Positions 33,552 through 62,082 of a stretch of DNA of 64,000 bases are shown in pieces. Position 1 is the stretch's first letter; the number at the start of each line of letters is the position of its first letter. The notes under the pieces were generated by a model, which was not told the origin of the DNA, searched no databases, and saw only the letters and a list, made by a program, of their open reading frames with translations. This DNA comes from Yuukianura sp. NJ FZ-2021 (lineage: Eukaryota), in the NCBI GenBank assembly GCA_046563655.1, contig CM102289.1, forward strand, positions 1,736,001 to 1,800,000, written 5' to 3'. The translations under genes and the position numbers were made by a program.

Positions 33552-34339
33552 CTACTATATAGTTAGGAGAATTGTTACTACGTAGTTGATAATATTTTCA
33601 TTGAGAGTGGCCGTCATTCCATAATCTACGTAGTTCAATGGACCACATCTGATTTAACACTGTTTGAGTGCATTCACCTTCCTCAATCCCGCTGTGTTCT
33701 TCCGCCACTGTCGTAACTTCAACTGACGGATATAGTCACCAGAGTGGCTGTATACAAAAGAACCCGCTAAAAAGCAAATGTTTATGAAAATAAAGAAAGC
33801 TGTTGCCATGACAATTACAACCAGACCAACAAAAGATACGGCCATCTTCAGGGATCCGCCGTAGAATAAAACACACAATGTGCTTCCAGAGACAGCGAAA
33901 CCACTGAAAGGTAACAAATTAAAGTCATTAAAAAGCAAAACGAGAACGGATATGGCGTTGTATCGATGGATTTCAACGTCCGCATTTGTGTTGTTTCTTC
34001 TGCGCAGAAGATCAGCAGGAGACAAGTAAAAGAGTGATGTGTTAATGAAAATGATGATGAGCATGCAGTATTGCATAATCTTGAAGGTGATAAAATACAT
34101 TTCTACAGCAAAGCAAACCAAAGCACATGCTGTGACTAATAGCGCGAAACTCTCTGTGAGTATAGGGTTCATTGGCGGCAAACACATTGTTATCGCGGCT
34201 CTGAACAGAAGTAGGAGATCCTTGTAGAACGCTATCGGCAGCCAGATTGTGTAACTCGAAGCTAGCAGTGGAACTCCATAGTGAAATATATTCATCATGC
34301 GCAGCATTATCATTTCATCTGGGATGTAAAACATATTCT
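33552..34339 (-). pseudogene. Orphan exon-2 copy of the GR-like family (copy B)
   Basis: Highly similar to exon 2 of copy C. It has a premature TAA at 33654-33656 where paralogs have TAC (C-Y-I-R-C). The acceptor is changed from ag|GG to at|AG, and no exon-1 homolog lies between 34340 and 35075. Confidence 0.75.
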
Positions 34340-35074
34340 ATGTTAATTAAACAAAAAGGTTATACAAGTCTTACAAATTAATTTTGTCCCTGTCGCTTAG
34401 TATTATGTTTATCTGTCGAGTACTGACTTCAATCATTGCTTGAACTTACATGGAGGCTCCAAGAATTTTTTTTATGTAGCAGTCCTACATAAAAATTTTT
34501 TACTTGGAGCCTTGTGCTACTGTAGCACACATTGGAATTTGTTGTTCCGTCGACTTATAGTACCTTATCTGATGAGTTATTTGCAATGTTCAATTTTCAG
34601 CTAACTTTAGTGATATTAACGAGAAAAGACTTTAAAAATATGAAGAAAACAAGATTATAACCCGGTTTTTTTGAGATTTTATCGAAAAATCACACAAACA
34701 TATCGGCTGGACCACCAAGAAAGGTGAAATTTCGCCGAAATTGTCGAAATATTTAAAAAATATTTATATTTTCTCAAAAAAACGCCAAAAATTTAAAAAA
34801 ATATTTACATTTTTTAAAATCGCGAAATATTTTTTTTAAATAAAAAAATATTTAATATTTAAAAAAACATTTTTACCAGGTCTATTAATGAGTATACGAC
34901 CCAGCAATGTCATGGAGTTAACAATACCTGGATTATACACAGAATAGTACTATTATTAATATAAATAAGTAATAGTATGGTATAATTATAAGTACTACTA
35001 CGTATAATAGCGCTAATAGTACATATTCCCTGTTTTAATGTATTATAACTTGAAAATTAAACTCTAATGCTTTT

Positions 35075-36742
35075 CTATTCTATAGTTAGGAGAATTGTTA
35101 CAACGTAGTCGATGATATTTTGATTTAGAGTGGCTGTCATTCCATAATCTACATAATTCAATGGTCCACATCTGATGTAGCACGGTTTGAGTCCATTCAC
35201 CTTCCTCAATCTCTCTGTGTTTTTCCGCCACTGTCGCAACTTCAACTGACGAATATATTCACCAGAGTAGCTATATACAAAAGAACCCGCTAAAAAGCAA
35301 ATGTTTAAGAATATGAATAAAGCTGTTGCCATGACAATTACAACTAGACCAACAAAAGTTACGCCCATCTCCAGGGATCCTGCGTAGAATAAAACACACA
35401 AAGCGCTTCCAGAGACAGCGAAGCCGCTGAAAGGTAGCAAATTAAAGTCATTAAAAAGCAAAACGAGGACGGATATGGCGTTGTATCGATGGATTTCAAC
35501 ATTGGCATTTGTGTGGTCCCTTCTGCGCAGAAGCTCAGCAGGAGACAAGTAAAATAGTGATGTGTTAATGAAAATGATGATGAGCATGCAGTACTGCGTA
35601 ACCTTGAAGATGATAAAATACATTTCTATGGCAAAGCAAACTAGAACACATGCTGTGACTAAAAGCACAAAATTCTGTGTTAGTGTAGGATTCATTGGCG
35701 GCGAACACATTGTTATTGCGGCTCTGAACAGAATGAGGAGATCCTTGTAAAATGCAATCGGAAGCCAGATTGTGTAACTCGAAGCTAGCAGTGGAACTCC
35801 ATAGTAAAAGATATTCATGATACGCAGCATTATCGTTTCATCTGGGATGTAAAACATATTCCCTGGTAATTAAAGAAAAAGGTTACACAAGTCTTTTTTT
35901 TACATAAATTATAGCGGAATACATAAATGTTTTTAAATTTGCCGTATAATCCCTACCAACTGTGCAAAATACGTTTGTGTACAGCGTGTCACACTTAAAA
36001 CTGAACACCTTCAGCCTAAGCAACTTATTTATTTTTTAAACCATTAGGGGATCTCTGAGCCAATTTCTGAAGTATTGAAAAAGTTTGCCAACTTATTATT
36101 GAAAATTATTGAAAAGTTTGGGAATATGCCTCCATGTTTTGTCACTTTTGAAGTGATTGTCATGAAAATTATTTTAGGGTGTTCAGTTTTAAGTGTGACA
36201 CTTAAATGCTTAAATGCATAAATGCTTGCTGAATAAAACGCAAGTGCGTGTGTACAGTTTACAACGTATATCAAATTGCTTCGAGAGATTTGGTTAAAAG
36301 TGCTTTATATTAAAGTGCGTAACGTACATTATGTGAAAAGCACAAACATACACGCAGGATCACAGTTACCTTTTGTACTATACAGTACAATGAGTAATGC
36401 GTTAACGAATTGCTGCCACTGTTTTGCTCTGCATATTGCATTGATATCATCGCATATGCATAGAGCCAGTCCAAACGACATGCCAAGTATCATTACCGTC
36501 ACGATAGACTCCAATTTGGTAACATGGTTGACCCATGCTGCGAATGCAGAGAATATCAACATTGCAATATCGCACATCAAAATTAGCATGGACAAGACTC
36601 TAAATTTCCAAGAATTGTTCAAATAAAACTGTTTTTTATAACTGTTCCAAATGAGTGGATTTTGGTATGTGGCGTGGGCTTTTTGAAAGGAACGAAGCAA
36701 TAATTTGACGCAAGGCCTCTCGCTAGCAAACCTGTTTCTCAT
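35075..36742 (-). CDS. Gustatory-receptor-like 7TM chemoreceptor, copy C (~386 aa, 2 exons)
   Basis: Exon1 36742-36370 (MRNRFASERPCVKLL...; AAAG|gtaact) and exon2 35862-35075 (accag|GG). Same intron position and phase as copies A and D; the frame is open. Confidence 0.75.
35986..36201. mobile_element. MITE (Tc1/mariner-like end) in intron of GR-like copy C
   Basis: Perfect 24-bp inverted repeat GTGTCACACTTAAAACTGAACACC (35986-36009) / GGTGTTCAGTTTTAAGTGTGACAC (36178-36201). The left arm is preceded by TACAGC. Confidence 0.65.
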
Positions 36743-37109
36743 TTTTGCTATGTATGTACATACAAGACACCTTCTCTGAAATATACAGTGACAAAGAAAA
36801 CAAAACCTACACAGCACAATCGGTTTTGTCTAAAGCAGTCAAATTTTCCTCTTAAGTCCATTAAAATTAAAATTAAAAACGTCCATTAGTGACATTTCAT
36901 GTTCTAGCGGTTTTTTAGTAAAATTGAACTCTCTTTGAACTTGAAAAACTCAAAACAGCGAATCCTCAAAAGTCAATTTCCAAATGCTTTTACGTTTCAC
37001 TGTTAATGTAACCTTGGCCATGTCATATTTGAATAACCCACCCGGTAACATTTTCGAACCGCGGAATTGTCAAGGCAAACAGCAACTCGCCATTGCTCCT
37101 AAACTCATT

Positions 37110-37442
37110 TTTCCGAATAAACCACCACGAAGCCCATTCCTCCGAAAAACAAGTTGCTCCGAAACTAATGAATGCAATGATGTGCTCAGCGTTTGCATAG
37201 GTTTGGTTTGGATAACAATAAGTTGATTACAATTTAGTTTATACTTAGTCTCAACAAGGTTACGTTAGATTAACATGCATTAATATTTTCGGAGTAATTT
37301 ACCGTTCGGAGCAATTGGTGACGTGGCAATTGATTTGGAGCTGTGAGCCTCGTCGCAATTTATTAGGACTAATTTGCTTCGGTAGAATTTATTCGGAACA
37401 ATTCGCTCCGGTGCAATTAATTCGGAGCAATGGAATGGAACC
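37110..37442. repeat. Dispersed MITE-like family with internal ATTGCTCCGAA / TTCGGAGCAAT repeats
   Basis: The motif is oriented inversely in the two halves and ends in ...TTCGGAGCAATGG(A/C)ATGGAACC. Related copies lie at ~40455-40777 and ~30282-30365. Confidence 0.6.
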
Positions 37443-37924
37443 AACAGAACTTAATAAATGCTAAGCTGACGAGTATTAAAAAATTACTTATTTACAAGGA
37501 CATTATCTAAAAGCAAAGGTTTTTAGAACCCTTTTAGTGCGGATTATATCTTATAAAAAATGGCAAAGTCATGTTAGAAAGTAGAAAAACAAATACTAAC
37601 GGAATTAAAAATATTTTTCTGAAATTACAATCGACCAATGGAAAAAAATTGTTGAAAAAACTGAGTTATACATTATATCCAACTCAAGGCAAAAATCTAC
37701 TTTCTTAGCATCAATGAATTGTATAATCAATCATAAACTCTCTATTTTTTTTTATAAATGAAACTAATCCAAAACTCGACAAGTTGAGATATGTTTTTTG
37801 CAAATTTATTTGAAAAAAGGCAAAAAATTTGTGTTTTAAGCATCAATCTATACAGTTTCGATTAGAAAATTATGCTGTTGAAAGTTTTGCATAAAATTTC
37901 CATGTAAGCGGTTCGTCTGTTGAC

Positions 37925-39656
37925 TTATTGTATCAAGTTGCCAATGTCTGTAACAGAGGGAATAGGTGCCCAGGAAAAGCTGTATCCACTTAGTTCGACT
38001 GAACCGTCACTGGAAAAGTCAACGATGACGTCACTGTTGACCAAATAGTGGAGAGCAGTGTTCGAGGTTCCGGTGAATCTGAAATACAAAAAATTAATAT
38101 TAGATCTAAAAATCAACTTTATTGTAATGGACACAGGAAGAGGATGAGAATTAGCATGAACAGCGTAGTTCACACCACGGAGGCTTTGGTAGCTCAGTGG
38201 ACAGAGCGAGCTCCCCGGATTGGAGAATGGCGTGGGTTCGATTCCCACAGACCTCACTTTCGCCACAGCGCTTTTATAGCAATACTTACTCTGGGACATC
38301 ATCGAGAACGGAATTTCCTTTGCTATAGACAACGATGGAATCAAATCCAGATTCCAGATTGACACTTTCAATGGTGAAGACAGATTGTTGGTTGATTGGG
38401 AGGATAGCTAGGATGTTGTCGTAAGGAGAGTAGAATCCGCTAATGAAGATTCCGCTAGATCCGATCAGGAGGCGCGTATCTTGACGCGCCATGGTATTAA
38501 TAGAGCTGTTTGCTACTAAAGATCGTTGCTGAGCTGCAGCAGCGATTTCAGCTGTGACGGAAGCACTTGGAGCCCATGAAACGGTGAATCCAGTCTGCTG
38601 GACTGATCCATCGCTGGAGAAATCAACAATGACGTCACTGTTGACCAAGAAATGGTCCGGGGTGTTTGTGGTTCCGCTTAATCTGGAATTTCAGAATTTA
38701 ATACTTAGTGTTGCTTAGCTAAAACTGTACCCTCAACGTTCCTAAACGAGAGTAAAAAATTTGAAACATAGATTGCGCTCAATGTTCGTGGATTCTAAAC
38801 ATCCAGTGTCTTAATTGCCACTTTCACTGGATATCCAGTGGATGAAATGGGCTCCTACAGGACGGTGGATGGAAGAAATCAGCTGAGTTTAAAAATTTAG
38901 CGCGAATTTCAATTTAATTTAAATTAAATATTATAAGATAATTTAATTTACTATTTAAACCGCTTTTGTATGATTGGTTTTGTTATTTGTAATTTTGTTA
39001 CTAGAATTTGCTGTTGTTTTATAGTGTTTTTGATTTTTGTCCGCTCTTTATTGCTAAATTATTCATATCCCGCGGGCAAAGCTCCGCATCTTTGGATCCG
39101 TCCATTTTGTCCGTTTTTTCCACTGGATATCCAGCCGTGGGCGAAATGTGGATATACAGCAACACTGATTGTGCTTAAAAAATCTCCTACCACTATGGTA
39201 GTTTTGCTTGAGCGGGATCTGTTTCCATTTTTTTTTACTTTTGATTTTAAGAAACCCCGACGGTATGAACAGAAAACTTACTCCAAAACTTGGCTGAGGA
39301 CAGAATTCTCTTTGTTGTAGACAACGATAGAATCGCTTCCTAATTGAAGGTCTGTACGCTCAACAGTGAAAACTGATGGTTGGTTGATTTGAATGATGGC
39401 TAACACATTGTCGTAAGGGGAGTAGTTTCCGGTGGTTGGATAAGAGAATGTTCCGCTAGATCCAGTCAGAAGGCGGGAACTTTGAACTGATGTGGTCTTT
39501 ACTGGTTTCTCCAGGAGCAAAGATCCTATGAAACAAAATTTGAAAGTAAATTTTAAGTGCTAAAAACACAAAAATTTTGTTAGTCTCGATGTTATGGTGA
39601 ATACCTTGAACCGCAGCGATGAACACGGAAATTATAACAACTGCCATGGAATCCAT
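37925..39656 (-). CDS. Secreted protein with two tandem CUB-like domains (280 aa, 4 exons)
   Basis: Exons 39656-39605, 39525-39282, 38682-38290 and 38078-37925, all GT-AG, total 843 nt in frame. Signal peptide MDSMAVVIISVFIAAVQG. Two internal repeats carry GxFS/ISxxxYSPYDN..., DSIVVY and VIVDFSSDGSVxxxG(F/Y)xxSW, matching the CUB C-terminal FxSDxSVxxxGF motif. TATAAA lies at ~39757-39752 on the minus strand. Confidence 0.8.
38180..38256 (+). pseudogene. tRNA-like sequence (pseudo-tRNA or SINE head) in intron 3 of the CUB-like gene
   Basis: D arm TAGCTCAGTGGACAGAGC, stem CTCC-ccggatt-GGAG, and perfect T arm GTGGG-TTCGATT-CCCAC. The acceptor stem pairs only out of register. Confidence 0.6.
38706..39167. 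mobile_element. hAT-like MITE in intron 2 of the CUB-like gene, related to 1616-1830
   Basis: Termini TAGTGTTGCT / AGCAACACTG and internal CACTGGATATCCAG palindromes. No clear TSD. Confidence 0.5.
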
Positions 39657-39783
39657 TTTTTTTAAGGTAGTGATGGTTGTGGGAAGGTTCGTTAATGAAT
39701 TTGGTACTCGGTTTCTGTGAATTGTGGCAATATTGGAAATTTTCAACATATTTATAACTAAAATTCCCTCAGGGTAGTTTTTA

Positions 39784-39955
39784 AGCCCAATTTATACTTT
39801 TCGTTTCCCTGGCGTTTCCCGGGCAAAAGTTTGTCGTAGACGTCTATAACAACCGAATTTTAAATACAAACGTCATGAAGTTTTCGTTAAAATCGTGTCC
39901 TACGACAAACTTTTGCCCGGGAAACGCCAGGGAAACGGAAAGTATAAATTGGGCT
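39784..39955. mobile_element. PIF/Harbinger-like MITE (172 bp)
   Basis: 56-bp terminal inverted repeats with one mismatch (AGCCCAATTTATACTTT...TTTGTCGTAG / CTACGACAAA...GTATAAATTGGGCT), flanked on both sides by TTA. Confidence 0.85.
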
Positions 39956-39972
39956 TTAAAGCGAGTTCAAAT

Positions 39973-40385
39973 TAGTGCTTCAAGTTCGGGCCAAAAATGA
40001 AAAGTTCGTACTTCGAACCTAAGTTCGAACCTTCTGAAGAGCAAGTTCGAACTTTCGAACCTTTTTTTATATGCAAAAAGCAAGGGGCAGTGAAAAAAAA
40101 AATGGCGAGGGTGATAAATTTCGCAATTCACATCCGAAGTGCATTTCCCCATGTATTTGAATTTTTTTCAAAAACTAACTTAAAACAATAGGTTTAAAGT
40201 GAACTAAAACTACTTTCTGAGGCAATATGCCTCGGTTTTTGTTGAAATCCATGCATTGTTGAATATTTGCCAATATTAACGGGTAAGTTCGAACTCTTTT
40301 GGCTGAGGTTCGAACTTCGAACCTAGGAAAACACCCAGGTTCGAGTTCGGAAGTTCGAACTCTAAAGTTCGAACTTGAAGCACTA
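39973..40385. mobile_element. hAT-like MITE (413 bp)
   Basis: 16-bp TIR TAGTGCTTCAAGTTCG / CGAACTTGAAGCACTA. Perfect 8-bp TSD GTTCAAAT (39965-39972, 40386-40393). Clustered subterminal GTTCGAAC motifs. Confidence 0.9.
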
Positions 40386-41927
40386 GTTCAAATGCCCTCA
40401 GGATCATCCTATCATAGACTCAAATGGTAGCGCACCAATACTTCGAATCAAATACTCCGAAGCGAATTGCTCCGAATGAGTTGCTACTAAACCATTTTTC
40501 CAAGGTACATTGCTACGAAAGTGAATTAGGTAAAAATGTTTAGATTAAATCGCTTTGATTAAAAATCGCAAGGCTAGGTTTTGTTAAGGCTGACAATAAT
40601 AAGGTCACAGTCGTTGGAGTTATAAAGTCATTACGCTAGACTAGGTTAGTATATAAAACTTTTTTTAAACCATTTTGCCAATCGTAACTATACGCCATTC
40701 GGAGCAATTGGATTCATAGGAATTCATTTGTAGTAATTCGCTTCGGAGCAAATCTTTCGGAGCAATGGCATGGAACCATGTCAAATTGAGTCATTTTCCT
40801 GTTGAGCCATTTTTGGAAATATTGTTCATTTGTTTTGGATCAATTTTTGTAGATTTCGCTGGAAACTGTATTTGATCAACATGTAGTTGGCGTAAATATT
40901 AGAAGATAACATATTTAATCAAATTACGCTTTTGAAAGGTGAGTGAACTTTAAGATAACTCGGATTTGTATCAGCTTTTAGTACAAATAACTAACAGTCG
41001 CATTTCCTGTTTTTCATCTTATCATTCATTTGTCATACCGCCAATTTTCAGGCACAGGGTATTTGAATCTGACAATCGACATTCATGGCGACAACACACA
41101 GAGCTGCGTTGAACCGTAACTATTGGAGGTTTTTCAATTGACAAGACATATGGTATTATAATTGATAATATTCTAATATTACAGTTATTGGCAAGAAATG
41201 ATAGTCAATAGTGAACACCGCAAGGTTTTTCCGGTTTGCTAGTAAAAACAGATCAAGGGGAATTGTTGAACCATTTTCGGAGTAATTACAGCTAACAGCC
41301 GGACAGCCAGACAAACGGACAAGGGTGACGCATAAAGTAGCTTTCCCTACTTAATAAAAAAATTCCATAGAAGGGAAGGCTATAAATGAGAAATTCTTTT
41401 TCATTTCAGGTATTTGGAAAAATAGGGTGTGTCGCCTAAAAACGTTTTGTCAGTCTATGTGTCTTCGCCAAGTAACCTCCAAAATCCATAGTAATTAGAA
41501 ATAGTTCACGTAACATTCTACTTAAATTTACATTAGGTTTAGTTCTAACAGCGACAAGCTATTCTCAAACTTTTAAAGTGTTTTTGTGCTAAAGTTCCCA
41601 CGCTATCGATCTCCTGCACGAGTTTGCTGAAAAATTTAGTTTGAGGAGAATACGAACTTAAAAATGTGATGGACACAAAAACAACGGGAAAATACTATGA
41701 ATAGCAGTAAAACCTAGTTAAGATGTAACTTATTTCCGTATTTTATGTACATCGGGTGTACCATAAGTCCGTTGGATCTTTCTCTACACAAAACTCATAA
41801 GCTCCAAAAACTCCACAGCGAGAGATAGGAGATGAGATGGAAAAGTTACACAGGGAGAAAGAAGATACAACGGACTTTTGATACATATAAGTTGAAAATT
41901 ATAATTTTCAAGTCTACTGTGAGAGTG

Positions 41928-43209
41928 CTACTTTATAGTTAGGAGAATTGTTACCACGTAGTTGACGATATTTTGATTAACAGTTGCTGTCATTCTATAA
42001 TCTATATAGTTTAATGGACCACATCTGATGTAACACTGTTTGAGTGCATTCACCTTTCTCAACTCTGCTGTTTTTTTCCGCCACTCTCGCATCCTCAACT
42101 GGCGAATATACTCACCAGAGTAGCTATGTGCAAAAGAAGCCGCTAAGAAAGAGATGTTTAAAAGTGTAAATACAAACGTTGCCACGACAATTACAACCAG
42201 ACCAACAAATGATACGCCGATCTCTAGAGATGCCGCAAAAAATAGAGTGCAGAGCGTGCTTCCAGTTACAGCGAAGCCACAAAAAGGCAACAAACAAAAG
42301 TCATTAAAAAGCAAACCAAGGACGGAAATGGCATTGTATCGATGGATTTCAACATTCGTATTTGTGTGGTTTCTCCTGCGCAGAAGATGAGCAGGAGACA
42401 AGAGAAACAGGAACGTGTTGGCGGAAATGAGGATGAGCATGCAGTATTGTAGCATCTTGTACGTGATGAAATACATTTCTATGCCAAAGCAAACCGAAGC
42501 TAATGCTGTGACCAAAAGAGCAAAATTCTGTGTCAGTGTAGGATCCATTGGCGGCAAGTACATTGTTATTGTTGCTGTGGACAGAAATACGGCATCCTGG
42601 TAAAATGCTATTGGTAGCCAGATTGTTAAAGCTGCAATTTGCAGCGGAACACCAACGTAGAAGATGTTCATGAGACGCCGCATTATCGAGTCATCTGAGA
42701 TGTAAAACACATCCCCTGTTAAAGTTACAAGAGAAAAGTTTTCGTATTCAAATTATATTGGAATACATAAAATGTTTTAAAATTCATTCAGTAAGTAAAG
42801 ATGTACATAAATGTATGTATTTAGTATGACAATTACCTTCTTTGTTGTTCAGTAAGATGAGCAATGCGTTAACAAATTGTTGCCAGTGCTTGGCTCTGTA
42901 TATTGCATTGATATCATCGCATATACTTAGAGCCACGGCAAATGATATACCAAGTATGATTACCGTCAGGATTTGCTCCAGTTTGGCAACGTAGTTGACC
43001 CATGCTGCAAATACGGACAACGTGAGAAATGCAATATCACCAAACAGAATTAACATAGACAAGACTCTAAATTTTGTAGAATTGTTTAAATCAAACTGCT
43101 TTTTATAACTGTTCCAAATGAGTGGATTTTGGTATGTGGCGCGGGCTTTTTGAAAAGAACGAAACATTAATTCAACGCAAGGCTTCTCGCTAACAAGCTG
43201 ACTTCTCAT
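41928..43209 (-). CDS. Gustatory-receptor-like 7TM chemoreceptor, copy D (~386 aa, 2 exons)
   Basis: Exon1 43209-42837 (MRSQLVSEKPCVELMF...; GAAG|gtaatt), a 121-bp intron, and exon2 42715-41928. Clear paralog of copies A and C. Confidence 0.75.
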
Positions 43210-44274
43210 TTTTGACTTTTTGTGTATATAAAGGACCACTTTTTTGGGAAGCAAAAACACAAAGAAAACAAAATCTACAAAACACAAACGGTTTTGTCTA
43301 GACAAAGCCTTAAAAAAATGCATTTTGTTCTTCGAAATCAGCCGCAACTTCAATTTTACCAAAGTCTAAATGGTCTTAACACACACAATACTGGAAATCC
43401 AAGCAGATCAATATGAAAATGCATTTAAGTTTTCTCATTCCTCATACGTCAGCCAATTTAAACTTGAAAAGCCCATTAGGCAAAGTTTTCAAAAGCGATA
43501 TTATCAACGACAACTTAATAATGCCGTAGCTGACCAGTTGCTGCTAGGAAAGAAAAAAACGCTTTTATAAGCACATATTTAAGAGCAATTTAGGACCTTT
43601 TAATGTTGGTTATTTCTTATAAACAAAAGAAATGACAAAGCCATGTAAAAAATATGGAAGCAAATAATTAATAAAACACGTTGAAAGCAAACATAAAAAC
43701 ATAAAAATGCAATCGATCCTGCAAAAATAATAGGTATACAGAGATACTCAGCTCTACATTGTATCCATGAGAAGTGTAAAGTCTAGGAATGAATAATTTT
43801 GAATCCAATGATTTTATATACTACAAATTACAGTACTTATTTGTACATTGTTATACTTTTGGTATTAGCATAAATATATGTATATTTAAAAATATCCTAT
43901 ATAAGAATATGCACTATTATTTGAAACTCTAGTGGTTTATGCTACTATGGCAATGACTCCAAAAGTTCCGCTAAAACTCATGTTTAAGAAGAATTTTCGA
44001 AGGCCTTTATGTCAAACTTGGCAATATTTAAAAGTATGCCATGTACCAAAAACTTAAAAAAGTTACTTTTATAGTAAAATCCACCAATAATATTGTTGTA
44101 CTTGTACTTGTACTAGTTTCTGGTGACTAAAATCCGCACAATGCACAACTTCGCAAACGTTAAGCGTTGCAATTTGGTTAGCCTAAAACTAGGTTAACCT
44201 AAAACTTGACGAATCTTAAAAGAGTGACATCCGGGTAACTTCGATTCGGCGGTTACAAACGTGTTACCGCTGTG

Positions 44275-44898: not shown

Positions 44899-47871
44899 AT
44901 GCCAAACATAAGCAATATTTCGAAAGTTTTGGTTGCCAATCGAGGTGAAATCGCTTGCCGTGTATTTCGGACATGCAAGAAGATGGGTAAGTTAAGTGAC
45001 ATTCTTCATTGACGTATTTTCGTAACGCGGCGAAGACGCGTAACATTACTCATATAACTTTTTGATTTGTAGGAATTAGGACCGTGGGAGTTTTTTCTGA
45101 ACCGGATGCGAATTCTCAACATGTCCAAATGGCCGACGAGGCCTATTTAATCGGTCCCGCAGCTAGTCGTCTTTCTTATTTAAATCAAGACAAAATCTTC
45201 GAGGTAAGAAAAAAGTCCTTTGCTAATACTTGAAGAAGAAGTCGGTCGAATCCTTAACACTACTTGATATTCGATTACTAGGTTGCAAAACGTTCTGGAG
45301 CTCAAGCAATTCACCCTGGTTATGGTTTCCTCTCTGAAAACTATGACTTTGCTGGGAAATGCAACGACAATGGACTAATATTCATTGGGCCACCACCACA
45401 AGCCATTTATGACATGGGAATTAAGAACAAGTCGAAGGAGTTGATGGTTGCCGCTGGTGTTCCTGTCGTGCCGGGATATCATGGTAGTCAAGCTGCCAAC
45501 GACCTTAACTTACTCAAAGAAGAGGCACTCAAGTATGAGACCAAAGTTTTTAATTAATGAGTCATTTACAATTCGAACCTTATTCACAAACGTTTTGAAT
45601 AGAAATCTCTGATTCTGGACTCTGATTTGTTTTAATAATGAATTATTGACATTAATTTTTAGGCTCGGATTTCCACTAATGATCAAAGCTGTGAAAGGAG
45701 GTGGTGGGAAAGGTAGAGTGTTAGGAGTTTGTGCAATCCTAAATAACTGGATACTAAAATAACTGTATAATCATAATGTGCTGATAATTGTATGATCCAG
45801 GAATGCGAATTGCTCGTACTGCAGAAGAATTTCTTAGCCAAGCCGAATCCTGCCAGTCTGAAGCGGAGAAAGCATTTGGAGATGGGGCTCTATTAATTGA
45901 AAGGTAAGAATTTCTCCCAAAATTTATGAATTACTCATTTGGCATTGATATTTTACAGATTCATTGAAGCACCTCGTCACGTCGAGGTCCAAGTTTTCGG
46001 AGACTCTCATGGCAACTGTGTGTACTTGTGGGAGAGAGACTGTTCGGTACAGCGTCGTCATCAGAAAGTAATCGAAGAAGCTCCAGCTCCCGGACTGGCT
46101 CCTGAGACACGAAAGAAAATCGGAACAGCCGCTGTTAATGCTGCTAAAGCAGTTCATTACGCTGGAGCCGGCACGGTAGAATTCATTGTGGAAAATCAAG
46201 ATTTTTATTTCATGGAGATGAACACTCGGCTTCAAGTTGAGCATCCCGTTACGGAAGCCATCACTGGTTTGGATTTGGTTCAATGGCAACTCCAAGTAGC
46301 AATGGGCCATGAACTACCAATCAAAAATCAAGACCAAATACCAGGTATGTTATTTGATAACAATTTTAACTTTACCTTTGTTGATATCAATTTTATGTAA
46401 TCATTAATCAAGAATCCTGTCTTTAGGCCCGTTCGGTCATGCCATGGAGATGAGAATTTATGCGGAAGACACTGCTGCTGGTTTTGTTCCTGCACCAGGA
46501 CACATTCACACACTCAAAGTTCCTACATCAGATTGCCGTGTCGAATCAGCTGTTATAGAAGGTAAGTGTGCAAATCATAAAATGAAATGAACTAATCAAC
46601 TAAAGTTAGCCTAACAACCTAACCTTATGTTATCACTTCCAGGCGATGAGGTTAGCGTTCACTATGACCCTATGATTGCGAAACTGATTGTCTGGGGAGA
46701 TAACAGATCTGAAGCCATTCGAAAGGCAGACTTGGCCTTGAGTGACTTTAACGTCGGTGGAGTGGAGACCAACATTGACTTTATGAGAAGAATTCTTCAG
46801 TCAAAGGCCTTCGACGGCTCTAAAGTTGTCACAACCAAATTCATTGAAGAGAATAACGATGAATTACTGTCCAAGAAGGTGCTAACTCCTCACCAAGTTG
46901 CCATGGCCACACTAGTGTTATCTGGAATCCAGGATTACTCTACTGGGTCAACTCTTGTTAAGCGGTTCCGATTGAATACGGAGATGAAGTCTCACTTTGC
47001 ACTTAAAGATGGAGAAACGAATGTTCAAGTGTCGTTTGCTTCTCAGCCGAATGAACAAGCTAATCTGAATTGTTTCACCATTGGGAACGTACCAAACTGC
47101 CAAGTGTTTCGAGTCTGGAAAACTGGAAATACATATGACTTGGAAATTCAAGTGGCTGATAAAATGGAAAAAGTGACTGCGTCCCTAGCTGAGAACGAGT
47201 TGACAATCTTCAGCAAGGTAACCTATGCAAAAATTTATTTCTCAATTCTTGTCGATGAAAATAGAAGCAATCTGATTGGCTCTTTTCGTTTGTTGTTTCG
47301 TAGGACGGTTGTTTCAAATTAGAAGTTCCTACACTTGGAATTCAAGACAGAGCGAGTGGGGGAGATCCATCTGGGTCTGGCAGCATAGTGTCACCAATGC
47401 CAGGAACGCTTGAAAAAATACTGGTTTCGCAGGGAGACAAGGTCACAAAAGGTCAACAACTTGGAACACTCGTCGCAATGAAGATGGAGGTAACAGTTTT
47501 TTGGAAATTCTGTTAAGAATTGTATCAGAATTCTAGTGAAAATTCAAATGAAAAGTCGTATGAGAATTCAATTTGAATTCAAATCCTTCAGGGAATTCTT
47601 GCCAGAGTTGTGAGAACTCTTATGAGAGTTTTTGTGAAAGTACTTCTAAGATTTTTTGTTAGAATTTTTCTGAGAGTTCCTATGAGAATTCTAAGAATTC
47701 TTTTAAGAATTCGTTTCAAAATTTTGTTAAAATTCTTAACTGAGTTTTTTTTCTTTGTGTTAGCATGTACTACGTTCTCCATGTGATGGAACCGTTGAAA
47801 AAATCCATCAAGAAGTAGGAAAAACCGTTGCAAAAGGCGGGAAGCTGTTCACTGTCGTGGGGAAGCAATAA
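44899..47871 (+). CDS. MCCC1: Methylcrotonoyl-CoA carboxylase alpha (biotin-containing) subunit, 670 aa, 10 exons
   Basis: Exons 44899-44986, 45073-45203, 45282-45532, 45663-45712, 45801-45903, 45959-46344, 46427-46561, 46643-47217, 47304-47489 and 47764-47871 (2013 nt). Motifs [74 protein letters not shown] and the biotinylation site AMKM. Confidence 0.9.
47505..47745 (+). repeat. Degenerate ~12-bp minisatellite (tgagaattctta-like) in MCCC1 intron 9
   Basis: Periodic gaattc/gagttc/gaactc cores about every 12 nt. Confidence 0.65.
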
Positions 47872-48165: not shown

Positions 48166-50314
48166 TTAGGCAGTTGGGAGTGGGATTTGAGCTGCGGCGG
48201 ATCTAAGGACTTTTCCTGTTTTTCCTCTTGGCAAAGCCTCAATGGCGTACACCCCGCCACGGAGTTTCTTGTACACGGCAAGTTTTTCTGAAAAAGTATA
48301 TATAAATTGATTGTAAATTGAAATAAAACTCTTTTTTTTTTGTTGTTTTCAGATTGTTTTCAACTCACGGTCAGCGAATTCCCGAATTTCGGTGGTGGTA
48401 GCGGTGGTTCCCGGTTTGAGAACGACGAGGGCTCTTGGAATGTGATCTCCTCCGTTTGGGTCGGAGATTCCGAAGACAACGACTTCGGCGACGGCTGGGT
48501 GATGGAGGATTTCGGCTTCGATTTCAGCTGGTGAGATCTGTAAAACCAAAAAAGTTCAGTTAGTTGAACCGGATCTCCTGATTAATTTTTTTTTGAAAAT
48601 TTCAGGAAAGGCGTACGTGATTGTTGTAATACTTGAACGTTTCCTTGATCCTGTCCACGATGAAGACCCATCCGTTATCGTCATAGTAACCCATATCACC
48701 AGTCTTCATCCACCCATTTTGAAAAGTGGCGGCAGTCTCTTCCGGTCGGTTCAGATAGCCTTGGGCCATAATCGGATTCTTGACACACAGTTCACCATTT
48801 TGGTTTGGTCCAAGGGTCTTGCCTGTTTCGAGGTCAAGGACCTTAAGGGAAGTGTTTGGCAGCAGCCGACCGACGGTCAAGGTTGGATGGTTTTCAATGG
48901 CCTTGAAGTCGTCAATTTCTCCGAGGTGTCCCGTTTGGTCCAGTGTGGTTGTCAAGACTCCGCATTCCGTGAGTCCAAATCCATTCAAAATGCATTTGAT
49001 ATTGGGCAGTAACTTCATGACCTTGAAAAAGTTCTCTGGAATAACCATGCCTCCGGTACAAACGGACACTATAGAACTTCTGTCATATTTGTGTGCCTCT
49101 GGATCAACTGCAAGGAGCATCAGGAACGTGGGGAATCCAAAGGCAAAGAATGGCTGAAATTCAAAAAATATCAAGGTTAGATTTTTTTTAAATTTTTGAA
49201 TTCTGAAAAATTCTTGTTGGAAATTTGAATTCTGAAATCGTGATTTCTACTTTTTTTTACCTTGTAGTTGTGAACGGCGTTGAAGATGTTTTCTTTTGTA
49301 ACTTGATGCATCATGACACCATGAGTTTTGCCAACGACATTGCGCATGGGCAGGAGCACTCCAAGGACATGCGTACATCTGAGGAGGAGGAGCGCCGGCT
49401 TATCAGTTGGTGGAATTCCGTTGAAGCTCATGAGGAACCCAATCATCGACATGTTCGTATACACTGCTCCCTTACTCTGGCCTGTCGTTCCACTCGTACA
49501 GAGGACCAGGATTGGATCACTCAACTGAGCATCGGGAACTCGAGCGGGGCAAGCTGAGTCAAAATTTCAAAAATTTTAAAATTAAAGTTCAAATTTACAT
49601 TTTTAGGTTAAATTGAATTACCTTCTCCATCATCCAATAAGAAATCATCGACTGAAATTGCTCCGTCGGCTTTTCCAAAAACAAAGACGTCGATTGGCCA
49701 ATTGACTTGCGCAATGGCTGCTCTTGCTTGTGGAACGGAAATTGGATCGCAGAAAATAAACTTCGCCTTGGACTCACGGATACGCATGATCAAAGTTTCT
49801 GAAAAACGTCAACCATGTTCTTTAAAAATACTAACTTTTTTTTTGGAAAATCTCGAAATGAAAAAATTTCAAAAAATTTTGTTTACCAATAGTGTCTTCT
49901 GGATATGAAGAGTACATGACACCACCAGCACGCCAGACACCAACAATCACTCCAAAAATCCGGGTAACGTCACTGGTCAAGTAAAGTGCGAAATCTCCCT
50001 TCTGCATTCCACGCTTGACCAAAGTGCTGGCAACTTTTCTGGAAAATGGTTCCAGTTCCGGTGCAGTCAACTCCTCACCAGTTACGGAGTTTGTCTAAAA
50101 TTTTTAGAACCATTTTGAAAAACTTAAAAAAAAAACTTTTCTTAAAATTTTCTAGACTTACCATCCATTTGACCTGACCAGCAGCCACATTTTCTTTGGT
50201 CTTCTCCAGCATGTACTCTACAGCACTGGTGGTAGTTAGTTTTGGAAAAGGGACCGGCGGATACGTCGAGTGCAAAATCTTTTCCTCATTGTCTTCGTTC
50301 GGTTTGACAACCAT
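48166..50314 (-). CDS. Luciferase-like / 4-coumarate-CoA-ligase-like acyl-CoA synthetase (ANL family), 552 aa, 7 exons
   Basis: Exons 50314-50162, 50094-49887, 49798-49622, 49553-49261, 49153-48617, 48537-48369 and 48287-48166 (1659 nt). P-loop TSGTTGQSKG, GFGLTE, GELCVK, GWMKTGDMGYYD, VDRIKE, ISPAEIE and terminal LPRGKTGKV. Confidence 0.9.
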
Positions 50315-51300: not shown

Positions 51301-51733
51301 AAGATGCGATGACTTAACCAACCGTCTTTCAGTCTGCTAAAAATATCTCGTTTTGTCTCCATATGCTCCATCAGTTGAAAACTGAGGAATAGACGAACGT
51401 TTTCACCATGAGCAAGGCAAAGAAAGGTCAAAAGAAGGGCGTGGTCACGTATCCTAAGAAAGCAGATTTCGAATGTGTTCCGGACGAAGATGCTGTCACG
51501 GTGGAAAACAATGGGAAATTTTACGAGGTACTCGAAAAAAAAAAGTATAGTTCAAATAGAATTTTTTAAAATTTGATCATTTTTTTTTTTGAAAAGTTGT
51601 CTATGGATGCCCGGAGTTTTAAGCCGGAAGAAGTAAAAATTCGGATCACGGCTACTCACGTGATTATTGAAGGCCTGCATGAAACTGACGAGGAAATTAC
51701 GGAATGTAACGAAGAAATTGTCATTCCGGAAGG
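51301..51733 (+). pseudogene. Truncated duplicate of the 5' end of the multi-alpha-crystallin gene
   Basis: 51337-51733 nearly matches 56851-~57246 (ATG 51408, exon 1, intron 1 and half of ACD1), and 51301-51338 matches 56357-56394. Similarity stops at IVIPEG and the frame ends at 51812. Confidence 0.85.
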
Positions 51734-52259
51734 AATGTACAATTTAGTAGGCTACAATTTATTAAAAGAAGTGTCACAAGTGAAACTTTGTATTTTGAGA
51801 GGTTATCATTAACTTACATCGACTTTCGAGTTACTAGCAGTCATTAAAAATGCTATGGATTTTTTGAAATGCTTTGCAGAAACATGATCCAGAAAGGTGG
51901 TTGTTAAAATACAAACTCATCCACAAACCCAACATAACGTAACCGCCAGGAAGAAAGAATACCTTGTTAAGAGTACTCATTATTAAAGTAATGTCAATAT
52001 GAAATGTCATTCCACGAAGCCTTCTCTAAACCCAGGTTTTAAGTATTTAATTAAGAGGAGAGTAACATATGTTTCAGGTTTAACCTGCTTCTGCTCGCCG
52101 CAGCAACTGACAAACTCTGAATTTGCCTTCAAAAATGAAACTGAACCAAAATTTAAAACAACAGAGGATCCCTCGTTTGAAATCTTTAAAAAAAAGTTTG
52201 AAAAAGTACCCCGGAGTACTCAATGTCATTTGACTATAAAGGCATGTTTGTCAAACACT

Positions 52260-56672: not shown

Positions 56673-56912
56673 GTAAGAAAAAAGTTTTGAAAATCGTTTT
56701 ATAATTTGCGACGCTGCTAGTTAAAGTCACTCACTCCAAGTAATTCAATATTTTCGAATTAACTTTTTTGAAATTTATTGAAATCCGACTTGGAGCGGAT
56801 CCAATTTCTACGAAGATTTTTTCAAATTAATCTTAAACTTTTTTTGAACACTAAAAATATCTCGTTTTGTCTCCATATGTTGCCATCTGAAGAATAGACG
56901 GACGTTTTCACC

Positions 56913-59125
56913 ATGAGCAAGGCAAAGAAAGGTCAAAAAGAGGGCGGGGTCACGTATCCTAAGAAAGCAGATTTCGAATGTGTTCTGGACGAAGATGCTG
57001 TCACGGTGGAGAACAATGGAAAATTTTACGAGGTACTGAAAAAAAGTATAGTTGAAATAGAATTTTTTAAAATTTGCTCATTTTTTGAAAAATTGCTTTT
57101 TTTGAAAAGTTGTCTATGGATGCCCGGAGTTTTAAGCCGGAAGAAGTCAAAATTCGGATCACCGCTACTCATGTGATTATTGAAGGTCTGCATGAAACTG
57201 ACGAGGAAATTACGGAATGTAACGAAGAAATTGTCATTCCGGAGGGAGTTGTTCCATCGACAATTGAAGTTCTGATGAATTCAAATGGAGTTTTGAGAAT
57301 CCGCGGTCCAATTAAACTTAAAGAAGTTGACCTGCCATGTACCGAGACCACACGGACCGTGACCACGGCAGAAACAACGGAAAAGACTAATGTCAAGAAG
57401 TCAACTGTCATTGACGAGAGTTCTGAGGAGGTCAAGGTCGTTGAGACGAACGTCATGGATCCATCTACTGAAGCTAAAATTCTGCAGGACAAGAAATTTG
57501 TCGACTCCACCAAGGACATTGTCACCAAAAATGGAAAACTGGAGGCAAGTTTTCAACAAAATTTGAAACTTTTTTTTTTGAAAAATTACTAAATTTTGAA
57601 TTTTCGAAACATAGTTGAACATTGACGTGAGAGGTCGCAAGGAAGAAGACATCAAGGTCAGTGTGTCCAAACGCATCGTGGCTATTCAAGTCGTTGACAA
57701 GGAAAGCAAAGACCGCTCGAAGGAAATTCACAAAAAGTTTTTGATCCCGAATGGAGTCGATCCCGCGTCCTTTCGAACGCTGCTGAAGAAGGGCGTCCTC
57801 ACTGTGAGCATGGACGATCCCAAAGCAGCTGCTCCACCAAAGGCAGCTCCTCCACCAAAAGCAGCCCCACCACCAAAACCTGCCCCACCACCAGTTCAGG
57901 AGCCACCAAAACCGGAGCCACCAGTGCCACTGGAATCAAAAGTTGTTGAACCCAGAGAAGTCGCGGCACTTGAACGTCGGTGTGAAGATATCACCAAGCA
58001 AGTTGTCAAAACTGAAAACAAAAAATTTGAGGTCATTTTAAAAAAATTCTAAACAAGCGGTAAATTTTGATTTTGAAATTCAAAATTTCCATTTGTTTAG
58101 GCCAAAGTGAATGTAAGCGGATACAAAGCCGAAGAGCTCAGAGTCAAAGTGACCAAGAAAATTGTGATCGTCCACACCGAAACCCGCACCATGACGAGAC
58201 AATTCAACAAGAAAATTGTTTTGCCCGCAGGCGTAAATCCGGATTCGGTCGTCAATTCTCTGACACCTTCGGACGGAATTTTAACAATCTCGGCGCCAAT
58301 TACGGACGAACCGCTTTCTGAACCGGTCGAAGTCACTCCGCAATTGGATTTGGCCAACACTACAACCACAACGGAATCTCAGTTTGAAGACATTTCCAAA
58401 CAAATTTCTCCCGGGAAATTTGAGGTCAATTTTCAAAAAGAAAGTTCTAAAAATTTTAATTTCATGTTTTCAAAATTTACTTTCAGGTGGAAATGGATGT
58501 TTCGGCGTTCAAACCGGAAGAAATTGAAGTGAAAGTAATGAAAAGCATTGTGACCATCAAGGGCCAGCAGTCTGTCCAACAATCACAGTCGTCTTCAAGC
58601 CGCCAATTTTTCAAAAAATTTAACATCCCCCAAGGGGTCAAGGCCGAGCAAATCAAGTTCACTTTTACTACAAAAGGAACGCTAAGAGTCTATTCTGAGC
58701 AGACGCAGACGCAGACAACTCAAGAGACGACGCAGTTGAGCAAAAGTGGATCCACGATTAAACCGGAAATCATTGGCAGTGGTCTGGGGTCCACGTCGGG
58801 TGGAATGGTCGCCAGTGGCGACAGTATCAAATTTGAGGTAGGAATTTCAAAAAAGTCGGGTTTTGCGAAAAATTTTAAATTTGAATTTCATTTGTGTTCA
58901 TTTTAGCGGAAAGTTGATGCTGCTGGATACAAAGAAGATGAAATCAAAGTGTCGATTGCAAATGGGTGGATCACGGTTACCGGCAAACAGCAAATGGGCC
59001 CGGAACTAAATTTCCAAACGCGCCAATTTACAAAGAAATTTTCTGTTCCTTATGGAGTTAAACCAGAAACGATCACTTGCAATTTGCAACCAAGCGGAAC
59101 TTTGGTCATTTCTGCCAGTCCTTAA
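56913..59125 (+). CDS. Small heat-shock-family protein with five tandem alpha-crystallin (HSP20) domains, 621 aa, 6 exons
   Basis: Exons 56913-57032, 57110-57544, 57615-58031, 58101-58424, 58487-58837 and 58907-59125 (1866 nt, all introns phase 0, intron 2 is GC-AG). Five repeats of KFE|xxxDVxx(F/Y)KxEExxVxV...F..K..xPxGV.......GxLxI. Confidence 0.9.
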
Positions 59126-59746
59126 TAACGAACTCTCCCATTTGATTTAAAAAATTTCCCACGCTACACTACTGCTTGTCTGTCCTGTGTGCTGCCTCCA
59201 ATAAAAAAAAGTGTTCTAGAACGAAAACAGAAGTCTCAAAAAATATTTCTCTACTGTTGCTCTCACAACAGCAAAAAAAAGCTCATAAAGTTCAATTTCA
59301 TTTCAATAAAATACGTGAGATAAAAATTTAAATTTACTTTTTAGCAGAGTTTTCCTTCTCTTTTTTTTTTTGTACAACATGTTCACCTCCAGATGCTAAT
59401 CTCGTTAATTAATTACCTTTGTAGAGAATTTCCGCAAGAGTGATTCTTGTTAGAAAAAATGGACTGAAAGTTTTATGCAATGATTGCACACAAATGATTA
59501 AAATGAAGGTCAACTTTTGCTTGTTGAAGTCTTCTCACAAATAAACTGACAAGAACCATTTGAGTCACTTTTGCAGGATTTTGAATAAAAACTATAGCAA
59601 ATTTTCTTTTCTACTCTCCCAACTCAAATTTAGAATTTATTTTTAAAAGTTGCATCGTAAGTTAAACTTTAAGTTTAAATCTTAAAAGTTGATATACTTT
59701 GGACACTTTTTAGTCTCAAGAGTTGGTGAATCGGGAATCTAGGAAG

Positions 59747-62082
59747 ATGTCGCCAATTTTGGCGACTCCGTTGACATACTGGTCACTTGTTGTGGCTTCA
59801 GTGATTTTATGGTACTTGTTTGCAAAGCAGTGGAGGTCAAAGGTCAACCTGAAGCGCAGAGGGTTTGTTGGAGCAAAAGGTTTCCCATTGGTTGGAAATG
59901 CTTTTGAACTGGCTGTGCCTACACACGGTAAGTAGGAATCACAAATTAACATATAAATTATGAAGAAGAAGGAAGGCCTAAAAAGAAGTTTAAATAAAAG
60001 TAAAAAATTTCAAATAATAACATAAAGTTAAAAAAAATATCAAAATTATATTGTTTTTTCCTCTCAGAGATGATTGGTGTAGTCACCAAGTGGGCAGATA
60101 TTTTTGGACCTATTAATGTAGCATGGTTGGGAAATCAGCCCTACATTTTCATTTCAGATGCCACTGCCGTTGAGGTTGTAATCATTTTTGTTAACTTCCA
60201 AAAAAACAAACAAAAAAAAAAACAAAAAACGAAATTCAACGAAAACGAAAAAATTCTTGACCAAATATCACTTTTAGAGCCTGCTGTCGTCAACTACTGA
60301 GATTCAGAAAAGTCTCGAGTACGGTTTTCTGCACAAGTGGTTGGGAACTGGATTAATTACAGCCAAAGGTCAAACATAAAAAAACATTTATGTAGTAGGT
60401 TTTAATAATATAGGATTTTACACATTTTGGTACATTTTTGACAACATTTTTACTGTAGGTGAAAAGTGGCATGAGCGGAGAAAGCTACTTACGCCCGCCT
60501 TTCACTTTCAAATTCTAGAACAGTTTATGCCAATTCTCAACGAACAGAGTCTCATTCTGGTTGACCTTTTGACCCACAAAGTTGGTCAAACAATTGACTT
60601 TTCTCCTTACATTACAAATTGTGCCTTGGACATCATTTGTGGTCAGCCCATAAACTTTGATGCCAAATTTTACCAATTCGAAAAGAATTTTTTAAAAACA
60701 ATGTTTGGTGTTTCAAAATTTTAGAAACTGCAATGGGTGCAAGGATTGATGCACAAGGAAACACTGAGTGTAAGTACGCTCGCGCAGTGTGCGAAATGAC
60801 AGATTTGACGCTGCAGCGATTTACAAAACCCTGGTTACGATCTGATCTCGTCTATAACTTAATTAACGGCAGACGACAGAAGCGATTACTAAAAATTTTG
60901 CATGGCTTCACCGAAAGTGTAATCGAGGAACGAAAAAAGCAAAGAAATCAAAAAACTAAAACTGCCGAGCAACACTCAAGTAAGAATTTAGAAATCACGG
61001 AATTTATGATTTTTTTTTATGTTTAAATTTTGAATTCTTATTGAAATATTGAATTTTAGAAAATCATCGAATGGCTTTTTTGGATTTGCTCTTGGAAGCA
61101 TCAGAAAATGGCCAAAATTTATCAACTGCTGACATTCGGAATGAGACTGACACATTCATGTTTGCTGGGCATGACACTACTGCAACTGCAATTGGCTGGG
61201 CCACGCTCCTTCTTGCAGCCAATCCGCAATGTCAGGTAGAAACAATAGCGTCAAATTTGAAATTTGAATTCAAATGTTGATTCAATTTGAAAATTTGAAA
61301 ATGTTAAAAAAACTTCTATTGTTAGAAAAAACTACAAAAGGAACTGTACGGCATTTTTGGAAATGACAGGCGGAGACATGTTACCAATAAAGACCTTTCT
61401 CAAATGAAGTACCTCGAATGTTGTATTAAAGAATCATTACGGTATAACTGATTAACTTATAAAAATTTCATTTAAAATGTCTATAAAATACAGTCGTTTG
61501 GTTAAATTCCACAGAATCTACCCAAGTGTACCATTTTTTGCCCGGCAACTGACGCAAGATCTTGACCTGGGTATGTTTCTTTCACAACTTTTCAATTTTT
61601 TGTTAACATTTTAAAAAAACTTTTAAGAATTTTAATTTTGAAGCTTTTCATAACTGTCAACCAATAGGAAACGGTCTCGTTGCACCCAAAGACGCCGTCC
61701 TATTCGTCGTGGGGTTCCTCATACATAGGAACCCCGAAGTTTATGAAAATCCTGAACAGTTTGTACCGGAGCGATTTCTGCCGGAGAATCGTGTTGGCAG
61801 GGGAGCATTTAGCTACTTGCCATTTTCAGGCGGACCAAGAAATTGCATTGGTAAAATTTCAAAAACAAATTATTTTTTTGAAATTTTGCTCAAGATAGTG
61901 ATAATTATTTTGAAATTTTAGGACAAAAATTTGCATTGATGGAGGAGAAAGTAGTGTTGGCGAATATATTCAGAAATTTCACGGTAACAACGGAGCAGAA
62001 CCTGAAAACAATGAAGCTCATTCCCCAATTAGTTCTTCGGCCTGGAGACGGTTTACATTTGAAATTTTCAAAATTACCTTAA
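59747..62082 (+). CDS. Cytochrome P450, CYP4 family (502 aa, 10 exons)
   Basis: Exons 59747-59927, 60068-60174, 60278-60368, 60459-60641, 60725-60979, 61060-61235, 61326-61441, 61515-61570, 61668-61850 and 61922-62082 (1509 nt). N-terminal anchor, [40 protein letters not shown] and [10 protein letters not shown]. Confidence 0.93.

Follow-up and report, generated by a model that had tools for sequence, protein, structure and literature searches.

A six-exon springtail gene predicted to encode a small heat-shock-type protein of five tandem alpha-crystallin domains

Among small heat-shock proteins (sHSPs), human alphaB-crystallin, HSPB1 and HSPB6 have a single alpha-crystallin domain between a long N-terminal region and an IxI tail at the C-terminus, and assemble non-covalently. 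In ordinary sHSPs, the N-terminal region is a main client-binding and assembly element. The flatworm proteins Tsp36 and p40 also possess a substantial N-terminal region. Tsp36 is a two-domain protein (PMC2850924, PMC9075518), and a 2010 survey names it alone as such (PMC2850924). More than two domains occur in whiteleg shrimp, for which PMC13226371 cites 'ACD-containing chaperone' genes with three and with seven domains (Zhang et al. 2023, Sci Total Environ 880:163239); both are reported to be heat-responsive with an expression peak at 12 h. The earthworm Eisenia fetida has the three-domain EfsHSP68, and annelids also contain double-domain sHSPs, according to PMC13226371 and PMC9075518. Oligomerisation and function of multi-domain sHSPs are stated as unstudied in PMC13226371. 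A gene for five such domains is predicted on the plus strand at 56913-59125 of a 64,000-nucleotide (nt) stretch of the springtail Yuukianura sp. NJ FZ-2021 (assembly GCA_046563655.1, contig CM102289.1, positions 1,736,001 to 1,800,000), called the window in the following. An earlier note on this DNA had given the two-domain flatworm forms as the known multi-domain state, which is incomplete with regard to the three- and seven-domain shrimp genes and the three-domain earthworm protein.

The gene and its five-domain architecture are very probably real. The best explanation as a whole is a covalently linked, ATP-independent holdase of the sHSP type, encoded by a conserved six-exon gene (probability about 0.6). 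The gene model comprises the following features.

56913-57032, plus strand: exon 1, 40 codons; start codon, N-terminal stretch of 28 amino acids (aa), lead-in and strand beta2 of domain 1
57033-57109, plus strand: intron 1, 77 nt, GT-AG, phase 0; spliced out in an RNA contig
57110-57544, plus strand: exon 2; beta3-beta9 of domain 1 (acidic beta6+7), Thr/Glu-rich linker 1, lead-in and beta2 of domain 2
57545-57614, plus strand: intron 2, 70 nt, GC-AG, phase 0; spliced out in an RNA contig
57615-58031, plus strand: exon 3; domain 2, Pro-rich linker 2, lead-in and beta2 of domain 3
58032-58100, plus strand: intron 3, 69 nt, GT-AG, phase 0; same place in the metagenome contig L001
58101-58424, plus strand: exon 4; domain 3, Thr-rich linker 3, lead-in (FEDISKQI) and beta2 of domain 4
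58425-58486, plus strand: intron 4, 62 nt, GT-AG, phase 0; same in L001
58487-58837, plus strand: exon 5; domain 4, Thr/Ser/Gly/Gln-rich linker 4, beta2 of domain 5
58838-58906, plus strand: intron 5, 69 nt, GT-AG, phase 0; same in L001
58907-59125, plus strand: exon 6; domain 5 and stop codon TAA (59123-59125), without C-terminal extension
59200-59205, plus strand: AATAAA, candidate polyadenylation signal 75 nt 3' of the stop, read from the sequence

As proposed in the earlier note, one gene with six exons yields a product of 621 aa. All exons are in frame, in-frame stops are absent, and the splice sites comprise four GT-AG pairs and one GC-AG pair; the GC donor of intron 2 is a detail that the note did not contain. 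Every exon length is divisible by three, so that all five introns are in phase 0. The start codon is the first in-frame ATG past a stop at 56895-56897. None of the exons 3-6 opens with ATG (first codons TTG, GCC, GTG and CGG). A signal peptide is not evident in the 621-aa product, which from its sequence looks cytosolic. All five introns split a domain between strands beta2 and beta3; the exon junctions 1-5 read ...GKFYE/LSMD..., ...GKLE/LNID..., ...KKFE/AKVN..., ...GKFE/VEMD... and ...IKFE/RKVD.... The repeat unit is thus one exon, consisting of beta3-beta9, a linker, and the lead-in with beta2 of the next domain. This unit is bounded by phase-0 introns, and the gene thus grew through duplication of an exon-sized module.

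RNA support was obtained from one public run, an outdoor metatranscriptome containing 0.07 of the sampled words. Two contigs, 95-99% alike to the window, cover 57003-57645 only. In one of them, 57028 is joined to 57110 (57029-57109 absent) with four letters in between. These are taken to be the 3'-terminal bases of exon 1, in which two synonymous differences occur, giving the join of exons 1 and 2. The other contig joins 57542 to 57613, skipping 70 nt; two letters are ambiguous, and the join fits 57544/57615. Two of the five splice junctions (1-2 and 2-3), including the GC-AG junction of intron 2, are confirmed in this way. The RNA-joined exons carry domains 1 and 2; for domains 3-5, linkage is deduced from the gene structure and its conservation in L001.

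The Pfam HSP20 profile (PF00011, 102 positions, cut-off 20.8 bits) was run on each exon translation. Exons 2-6 obtained 27.3, 32.9, 39.0, 48.2 and 35.7 bits (E 3.9e-6 to 1.3e-12), hence the five hits expected in the earlier note were found, one for each of the five domain exons; the exon 1 translation gave no HSP20 match. All five matches open at profile position 11-12, because beta2 sits at the 3' end of the previous exon. Pairwise identity among the five domains is 22-40%. The best matches of a five-domain profile were alphaB-crystallin, HSPB1, HSPB6 and C. elegans Sip1 chains (E ~1e-16 to 1e-13). The profile aligns to alphaB-crystallin across beta6+7 without loop insertion, i.e. to a single long strand and not to a swapped beta6 loop. 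An AlphaFold2 (AF2) model of domain 1 (20-row alignment) reached a predicted local distance difference test score (pLDDT) of 85.9 and presents the acidic segment as one long strand, residues 33-41. Human alphaB-crystallin domains were the top Foldseek matches of this model, with template modelling (TM) scores of 0.80-0.83 and root-mean-square deviations (rmsd) of 1.4-2.4. The beta-sandwich fold was modelled for domain 1, and domains 2-5 were assigned by sequence. By profile and alignment, the five classify as metazoan-type alpha-crystallin domains. A six-frame scan of the window with the five-domain profile detected these five and one truncated copy.

The truncated copy is a duplicate of the 5' end of the gene, located at 51337-51734 (plus strand) and 89.3% identical over 410 columns to 56851-57247; the profile match extends over 51570-51809. 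It contains about 60 nt of upstream sequence, the full exon 1, intron 1 and about 48 codons of exon 2, after which the similarity stops. The copy is probably a gene fragment or pseudogene.

The gene is conserved in a metagenome contig, L001. A blastp search of the spliced protein against 152 retrieved proteins gave exon-sized open reading frames (ORFs) 52-72% identical to exons 2, 3, 4 and 6, and one such ORF led to the contig. L001 carries six collinear exons, all in phase 0 and all GT-AG, for a product of 622 aa with 75% aa identity and the same abrupt C-terminus. The similarity starts at the exon 1 Met. Comparison of L001 with the window by tblastx revealed the gene and its truncated copy alone and no common flanking genes. 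Between window and L001, the Nei-Gojobori proportions of nonsynonymous (pN) and synonymous (pS) differences were 0.158 and 0.764, respectively, the synonymous sites being saturated. pN was 0.130 in domains versus 0.245 in linkers, and ratios of nonsynonymous to synonymous substitution rates (dN/dS) of 0.059 and 0.046 were calculated for domains 1 and 2. The substitution pattern indicates purifying selection on all five domains and on the linkers.

Orthologous exons were found in L001 and P0072 for exon 3, in L001 and P0085 for exon 4, and in L001 for exon 5, and exon 2-sized ORFs of two other lineages are 73-75% identical. A third lineage, distinct from both window and L001, is represented by ORFs the size of exons 2, 3 and 4; every one of them comes from a Logan contig with a listed length of 2909 nt, which may be one and the same contig. 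At the position of intron 2, the L001 donor is GT; the ORF of the third lineage continues with Val past the junction, which fits GT. A quick IQ-TREE analysis comprised 87 domains from 21 chosen proteins on 94 columns, with many forks unresolved; of six near-identical firefly domains the first two were used, and a match to at least 46 profile positions was required of every domain. Every window domain has the L001 domain of the same number as its partner, with values of 98-100 in the Shimodaira-Hasegawa-like approximate likelihood ratio test (SH-aLRT). The five-domain state is therefore older than the split between window and L001, and all five domains already existed when at least two springtail lineages diverged.

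Domain 1 differs from the other domains in charge. The net charges of domains 1-5 are -7, +6, +5, +4 and +2 in the window and -7, +2, +7, +5 and +2 in L001. In the 16 residues ahead of the conserved IPxGV motif, domain 1 has a charge of -7 versus +2 to +3 in domains 2-5. The contrast between an acidic domain 1 and basic domains 2-5 in the dimer strand, described in the earlier note, is borne out by these counts. The profile consensus r-q-f-n-k-k-f aligns onto R-E-F-H-R-K-Y of alphaB-crystallin, in which the basic positions are Arg116 and Arg120. The corresponding residues of beta6+7 are R...KK in domains 3-5, K...KK in domain 2 and T/gap...EE in domain 1. They are thus basic in four of five domains and reversed in domain 1, where Glu-Glu replaces Lys-Lys and Arg is absent. 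Only two positions of the acidic strand segment vary, each by a conservative exchange (D/E, I/V); the core TECNEEIVIPEGV is the same in all three lineages. AF2 model, Foldseek matches and charge together indicate a well-folded metazoan-type domain with a charge-reversed pairing strand.

The linkers are of low complexity, and their composition agrees with the types first described. Linker 1 is Thr/Glu-rich (61 aa; L001 61), linker 2 Pro-rich (53 aa including 18 Pro; L001 52), linker 3 Thr-rich (26 aa; L001 28) and linker 4 Thr/Ser/Gly/Gln-rich (33 aa; L001 31). The best-conserved linker parts are the stretches just ahead of each beta2; TEAKILQDKKFVDSTKDIV is invariant across the three lineages, and the ...FEDISKQI... 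lead-in is likewise conserved. Hydrophobic-x-hydrophobic motifs are confined to linkers 1-3. The motifs [VI]-x-V-[VI] of linker 1 and V-x-L of linker 2 are retained in three of three lineages. Both termini are as short as the earlier note had reported. The stretch before the lead-in of domain 1 measures 28 aa and does not amount to the substantial N-terminal region of a canonical sHSP. The chain ends two to three residues past the last strand without a C-terminal IxI/V tail, and the L001 product ends likewise.

A search of 1.84 billion representative proteins with the five-domain profile gave 3650 matches at E<=1e-3 and 15 at E<=1e-30. The 152 top-ranked proteins were retrieved, and names were looked up for 30 of the 150 best clusters. 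With exon 5 as query, a word-index search for longer proteins scored none of 240 candidates. Two or more domains, up to ten, were present in 140 of the 152 proteins (one domain in 12, two in 83, three in 39, four in 7, five in 4, six in 4, and eight, nine and ten in one each); these counts are not a frequency among sHSPs, because summed domain scores favour multi-domain proteins. Named matches among the 30 clusters include proteins of lobster, crab, crayfish, prawn, krill, copepod, ladybird, firefly and two nematodes; a named springtail protein was not among them. Databases hold predicted proteins of 5-10 domains for decapods, krill and beetles. Pfam HSP20 stretches number nine in Coccinella septempunctata XP_044752623.1, eight in Homarus americanus XP_042240681.1 and five in Eriocheir sinensis XP_050702182.1. 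The decapod proteins P0003, P0009, P0016, P0034 and P0058 with four to eight HSP20 domains are auto-named 'serine-rich adhesin for platelets-like', 'titin-like' or 'dentin sialophosphoprotein-like'. Such names seem to reflect the low-complexity linkers and to conceal that the proteins are sHSPs. P0001 (Abscondita terminalis, 600 aa) contains six nearly identical alpha-crystallin repeats and is either a very recent internal amplification or an annotation fusion of tandem genes.

Orthology of the springtail protein with the decapod and beetle multi-domain proteins was rejected. Decapod, copepod and beetle domains form lineage-specific groups in the tree, which suggests independent expansions, read from a 94-column alignment with many unresolved forks. 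A topology holding the ten springtail domains together was not rejected (approximately unbiased test, p-AU 0.352). Among the 150 best matches, eight are exon-like ORFs with identical module boundaries, starting at beta3 and ending with ...KFE followed by V, often with Gln-rich linkers and a FEDISKQI-type lead-in. P0008 is an 850-aa ORF filling a 2726-nt contig, with five domains by the five-domain profile and three by Pfam. Together with P0008, the exon-like ORFs indicate that the module marks a wider family in soil samples. P0007 and P0012, each from a metagenome contig with a listed length of 3431 nt that may be the same one, have two domains each in one ORF without an intron between the domains; P0012 shows long Gln-rich linkers and the ...KFE/V end boundary. 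They suggest a further multi-domain gene whose exons are arranged in a partly different way. The novelty seen by the earlier note is reduced in that multi-domain architecture is common in arthropod databases (the 140 of 152 proteins above). No characterised five-domain orthologue turned up in the literature on multi-domain or Collembola sHSPs, searched by title and beginning of the abstract. Reports of this kind of architecture already exist for two, three and seven domains, and arthropod databases contain it in abundance, but uncharacterised.

A mechanism can be put forward tentatively. The 621-aa protein would act as a cytosolic, ATP-independent holdase of the sHSP type, in which the covalent linkage of five domains substitutes for the N-terminal region and the C-terminal IxI tail in gathering the domains. 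The conserved hydrophobic-x-hydrophobic motifs of the linkers may dock in the beta4/beta8 grooves of neighbour domains. Domains 2-5 could pair antiparallel through the retained basic beta6+7 strand. Domain 1 would most likely not pair with itself but join, as a cap or heterotypic partner, a basic domain or another protein. The ability of an alpha-crystallin domain to take a non-sHSP partner is indicated by a solved complex, in which, according to the title of the entry, the HSPB7 domain is bound to an immunoglobulin (Ig) domain of filamin C. The argument of the earlier note, that an odd number of charge-asymmetric domains cannot all pair internally and that the protein may therefore polymerise, is not compelling. 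Were domain 1 to depart from canonical pairing, the remaining four could pair internally, and the argument would lose its force. A more elaborate version, in which multi-domain alpha-crystallin proteins represent an assembly solution of their own, an 'sHSP oligomer on a string', is doubtful. In it, the acidic domain 1 would pair with a basic domain of its own or another chain as a built-in cap or switch; release of the cap by pH, temperature or dehydration would expose grooves or link chains, and the linkers would be elastic or condensate-forming. If true, such properties would fit the tolerance of soil springtails to cold and desiccation.

Several observations weigh against a linked holdase of this kind. 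With 28 aa at the N-terminus and no IxI tail, classical holdase behaviour is not assured. The V-x-V motif of linker 3 is retained in only two of three lineages. An AF2 model of exon 4, comprising domain 3, linker 3 and the next beta2 (3-row alignment), reached a pLDDT of 55.2 and a predicted TM score (pTM) of 0.32, with the linker below 50, and is uninformative as to docking of the linker motif. RNA cover of exons 4-6 was nil in the one run, which is uninformative either way. A perfect heat-shock element was not found within ~1 kb upstream in window or L001, and elements with one mismatch occur at the window background rate of 0.55 per kb; as the promoter is unmapped, the missing element is weak evidence against heat induction. 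The short N-terminal region, the missing tail and the missing heat-shock element also fit a structural or elastic scaffold, a protectant that forms condensates under cold or desiccation, or a component of muscle or cytoskeleton, with the domains as interaction modules on spacers. Such a role is unlikely, even though the low-complexity linkers hold length and composition across lineages and the HSPB7 complex, going by its title, offers a domain bound to a filamin C Ig domain. The 'titin-like', 'serine-rich adhesin for platelets-like' and 'dentin sialophosphoprotein-like' names of long Gln/Ser-linker relatives are in its favour, but they are automatic, composition-driven labels, and domains 2-5 retain the hallmarks of chaperone-type metazoan domains.

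Compatible with the linked holdase, and somewhat improbable, is the view that the five-domain product represents one isoform among a set with one to five domains. The internal exons have phase 0 at both ends, and skipping of any of them keeps the frame. All five introns are in phase 0 in L001 as well, and crab and crayfish multi-domain relatives are recorded with many isoforms (X13/X15, X3/X5). However, the sole RNA evidence consists of the constitutive joins 1-2 and 2-3, and each domain is separately conserved by its position in the tree. The five-domain ORF of P0008 leaves no room for introns in its contig and is read as one transcript of another species. An artefact, i.e. tandem single-domain genes or a decaying pseudogene, is highly improbable. 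Exons 4-6 are without RNA cover, and the truncated 5'-end copy 5.5 kb upstream implies that the region has seen duplication. Yet exons 3-6 lack an ATG start and each beta2 is encoded in the upstream exon, in-frame stops are missing, four GT-AG and one GC-AG site pairs are present with two of five junctions seen in RNA, and L001 repeats the structure, with a pN that is far lower than pS. Separate single-domain genes and mutually exclusive exon use, named in the earlier note as the case against its model, were rejected as unlikely on the RNA joins 1-2 and 2-3, the non-ATG starts of exons 3-6, the beta2 strand that every domain takes from the preceding exon, and the structure of L001.

Elsewhere in the window, other coding sequences were recognized. 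Paralogous, membrane-protein-like ORFs in pairs (~270 and 180 aa) form a tandem array over 30933-43365 (minus strand). Examples of the pairs are given below.

30933-31748 with 32370-32918, minus strand: ORF pair of the array
35075-35869 with 36329-36829, minus strand: ORF pair of the array
41928-42752 with 42784-43365, minus strand: ORF pair of the array

Two array ORFs were scanned and gave no Pfam match at E<=0.01; the array may represent a lineage-specific receptor family. Exons of the methylcrotonoyl-CoA carboxylase alpha subunit are located at 45930-47322 (plus strand), with CPSase_L_D2 and Biotin_carb_C domains. The first of them (45930-46400) shares 90% identity with the proteins of Allacma fusca and Orchesella cincta, the next named matches reaching at most 73%, and thereby assigns the window to Collembola. 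At 48602-49246 (minus strand), one exon encodes part of an AMP-binding enzyme (PF00501, E 2.2e-21), whose type is acyl-CoA synthetase or luciferase-like. A 277-aa open frame at 5701-6534 (minus strand), with Pfam matches all sub-threshold, may be a mobile-element gene. Just downstream of the five-domain gene, a 73-aa open frame at 59714-59935 (plus strand) has a hydrophobic N-terminal anchor and no Pfam match. It presumably resembles the start of a cytochrome P450.

The assembly of sHSPs and its control of activity remain a matter of debate, since the oligomers of normal sHSPs are shifting and polydisperse. A natural chain of five domains, each conserved on its own, fixes the stoichiometry by covalent linkage and would provide a tractable model. 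The springtail protein is handy in this respect, with 621 aa, short linkers, a clear exon module and a charge-reversed domain kept in three lineages. According to the survey, multi-domain alpha-crystallin proteins are a common feature of Pancrustacea, where they often carry wrong labels.

Among the known systems, the domains of human alphaB-crystallin, HSPB1 and HSPB6 have the same fold and the long beta6+7 strand type of the springtail domains. The three are the best sequence matches, and alphaB-crystallin is the best structural match (TM 0.80-0.83). Tsp36 of Taenia saginata (PDB 2BOL) and Schistosoma p40 share the tandem arrangement, but with two domains instead of five. Tsp36 matched the five-domain profile with E 8.9e-11, weaker than alphaB-crystallin (~2e-16), and gave no sign of orthology. 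EfsHSP68 and the annelid double-domain sHSPs are, like the springtail protein, multi-domain sHSPs of a soil animal; in contrast, they have two or three domains, are spiralian and are described from transcripts. The whiteleg shrimp genes are likewise pancrustacean and have more than two alpha-crystallin domains; in the tree, decapod multi-domain proteins form their own clades, separate from the springtail domains. The ladybird, lobster and crab proteins resemble the springtail protein in many HSP20 domains on low-complexity linkers, but are much longer (1072-2415 aa versus 621 aa), and their domains cluster by lineage. An acidic first domain is not reported for the predicted arthropod multi-domain proteins. 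P0008 differs from the springtail protein in long Gln-rich linkers and in 32-42% identity per domain. It shares with it a weak, net-acidic first domain (-4) and the abrupt end past the last domain, and this last domain groups with springtail domain 5 (SH-aLRT 89).

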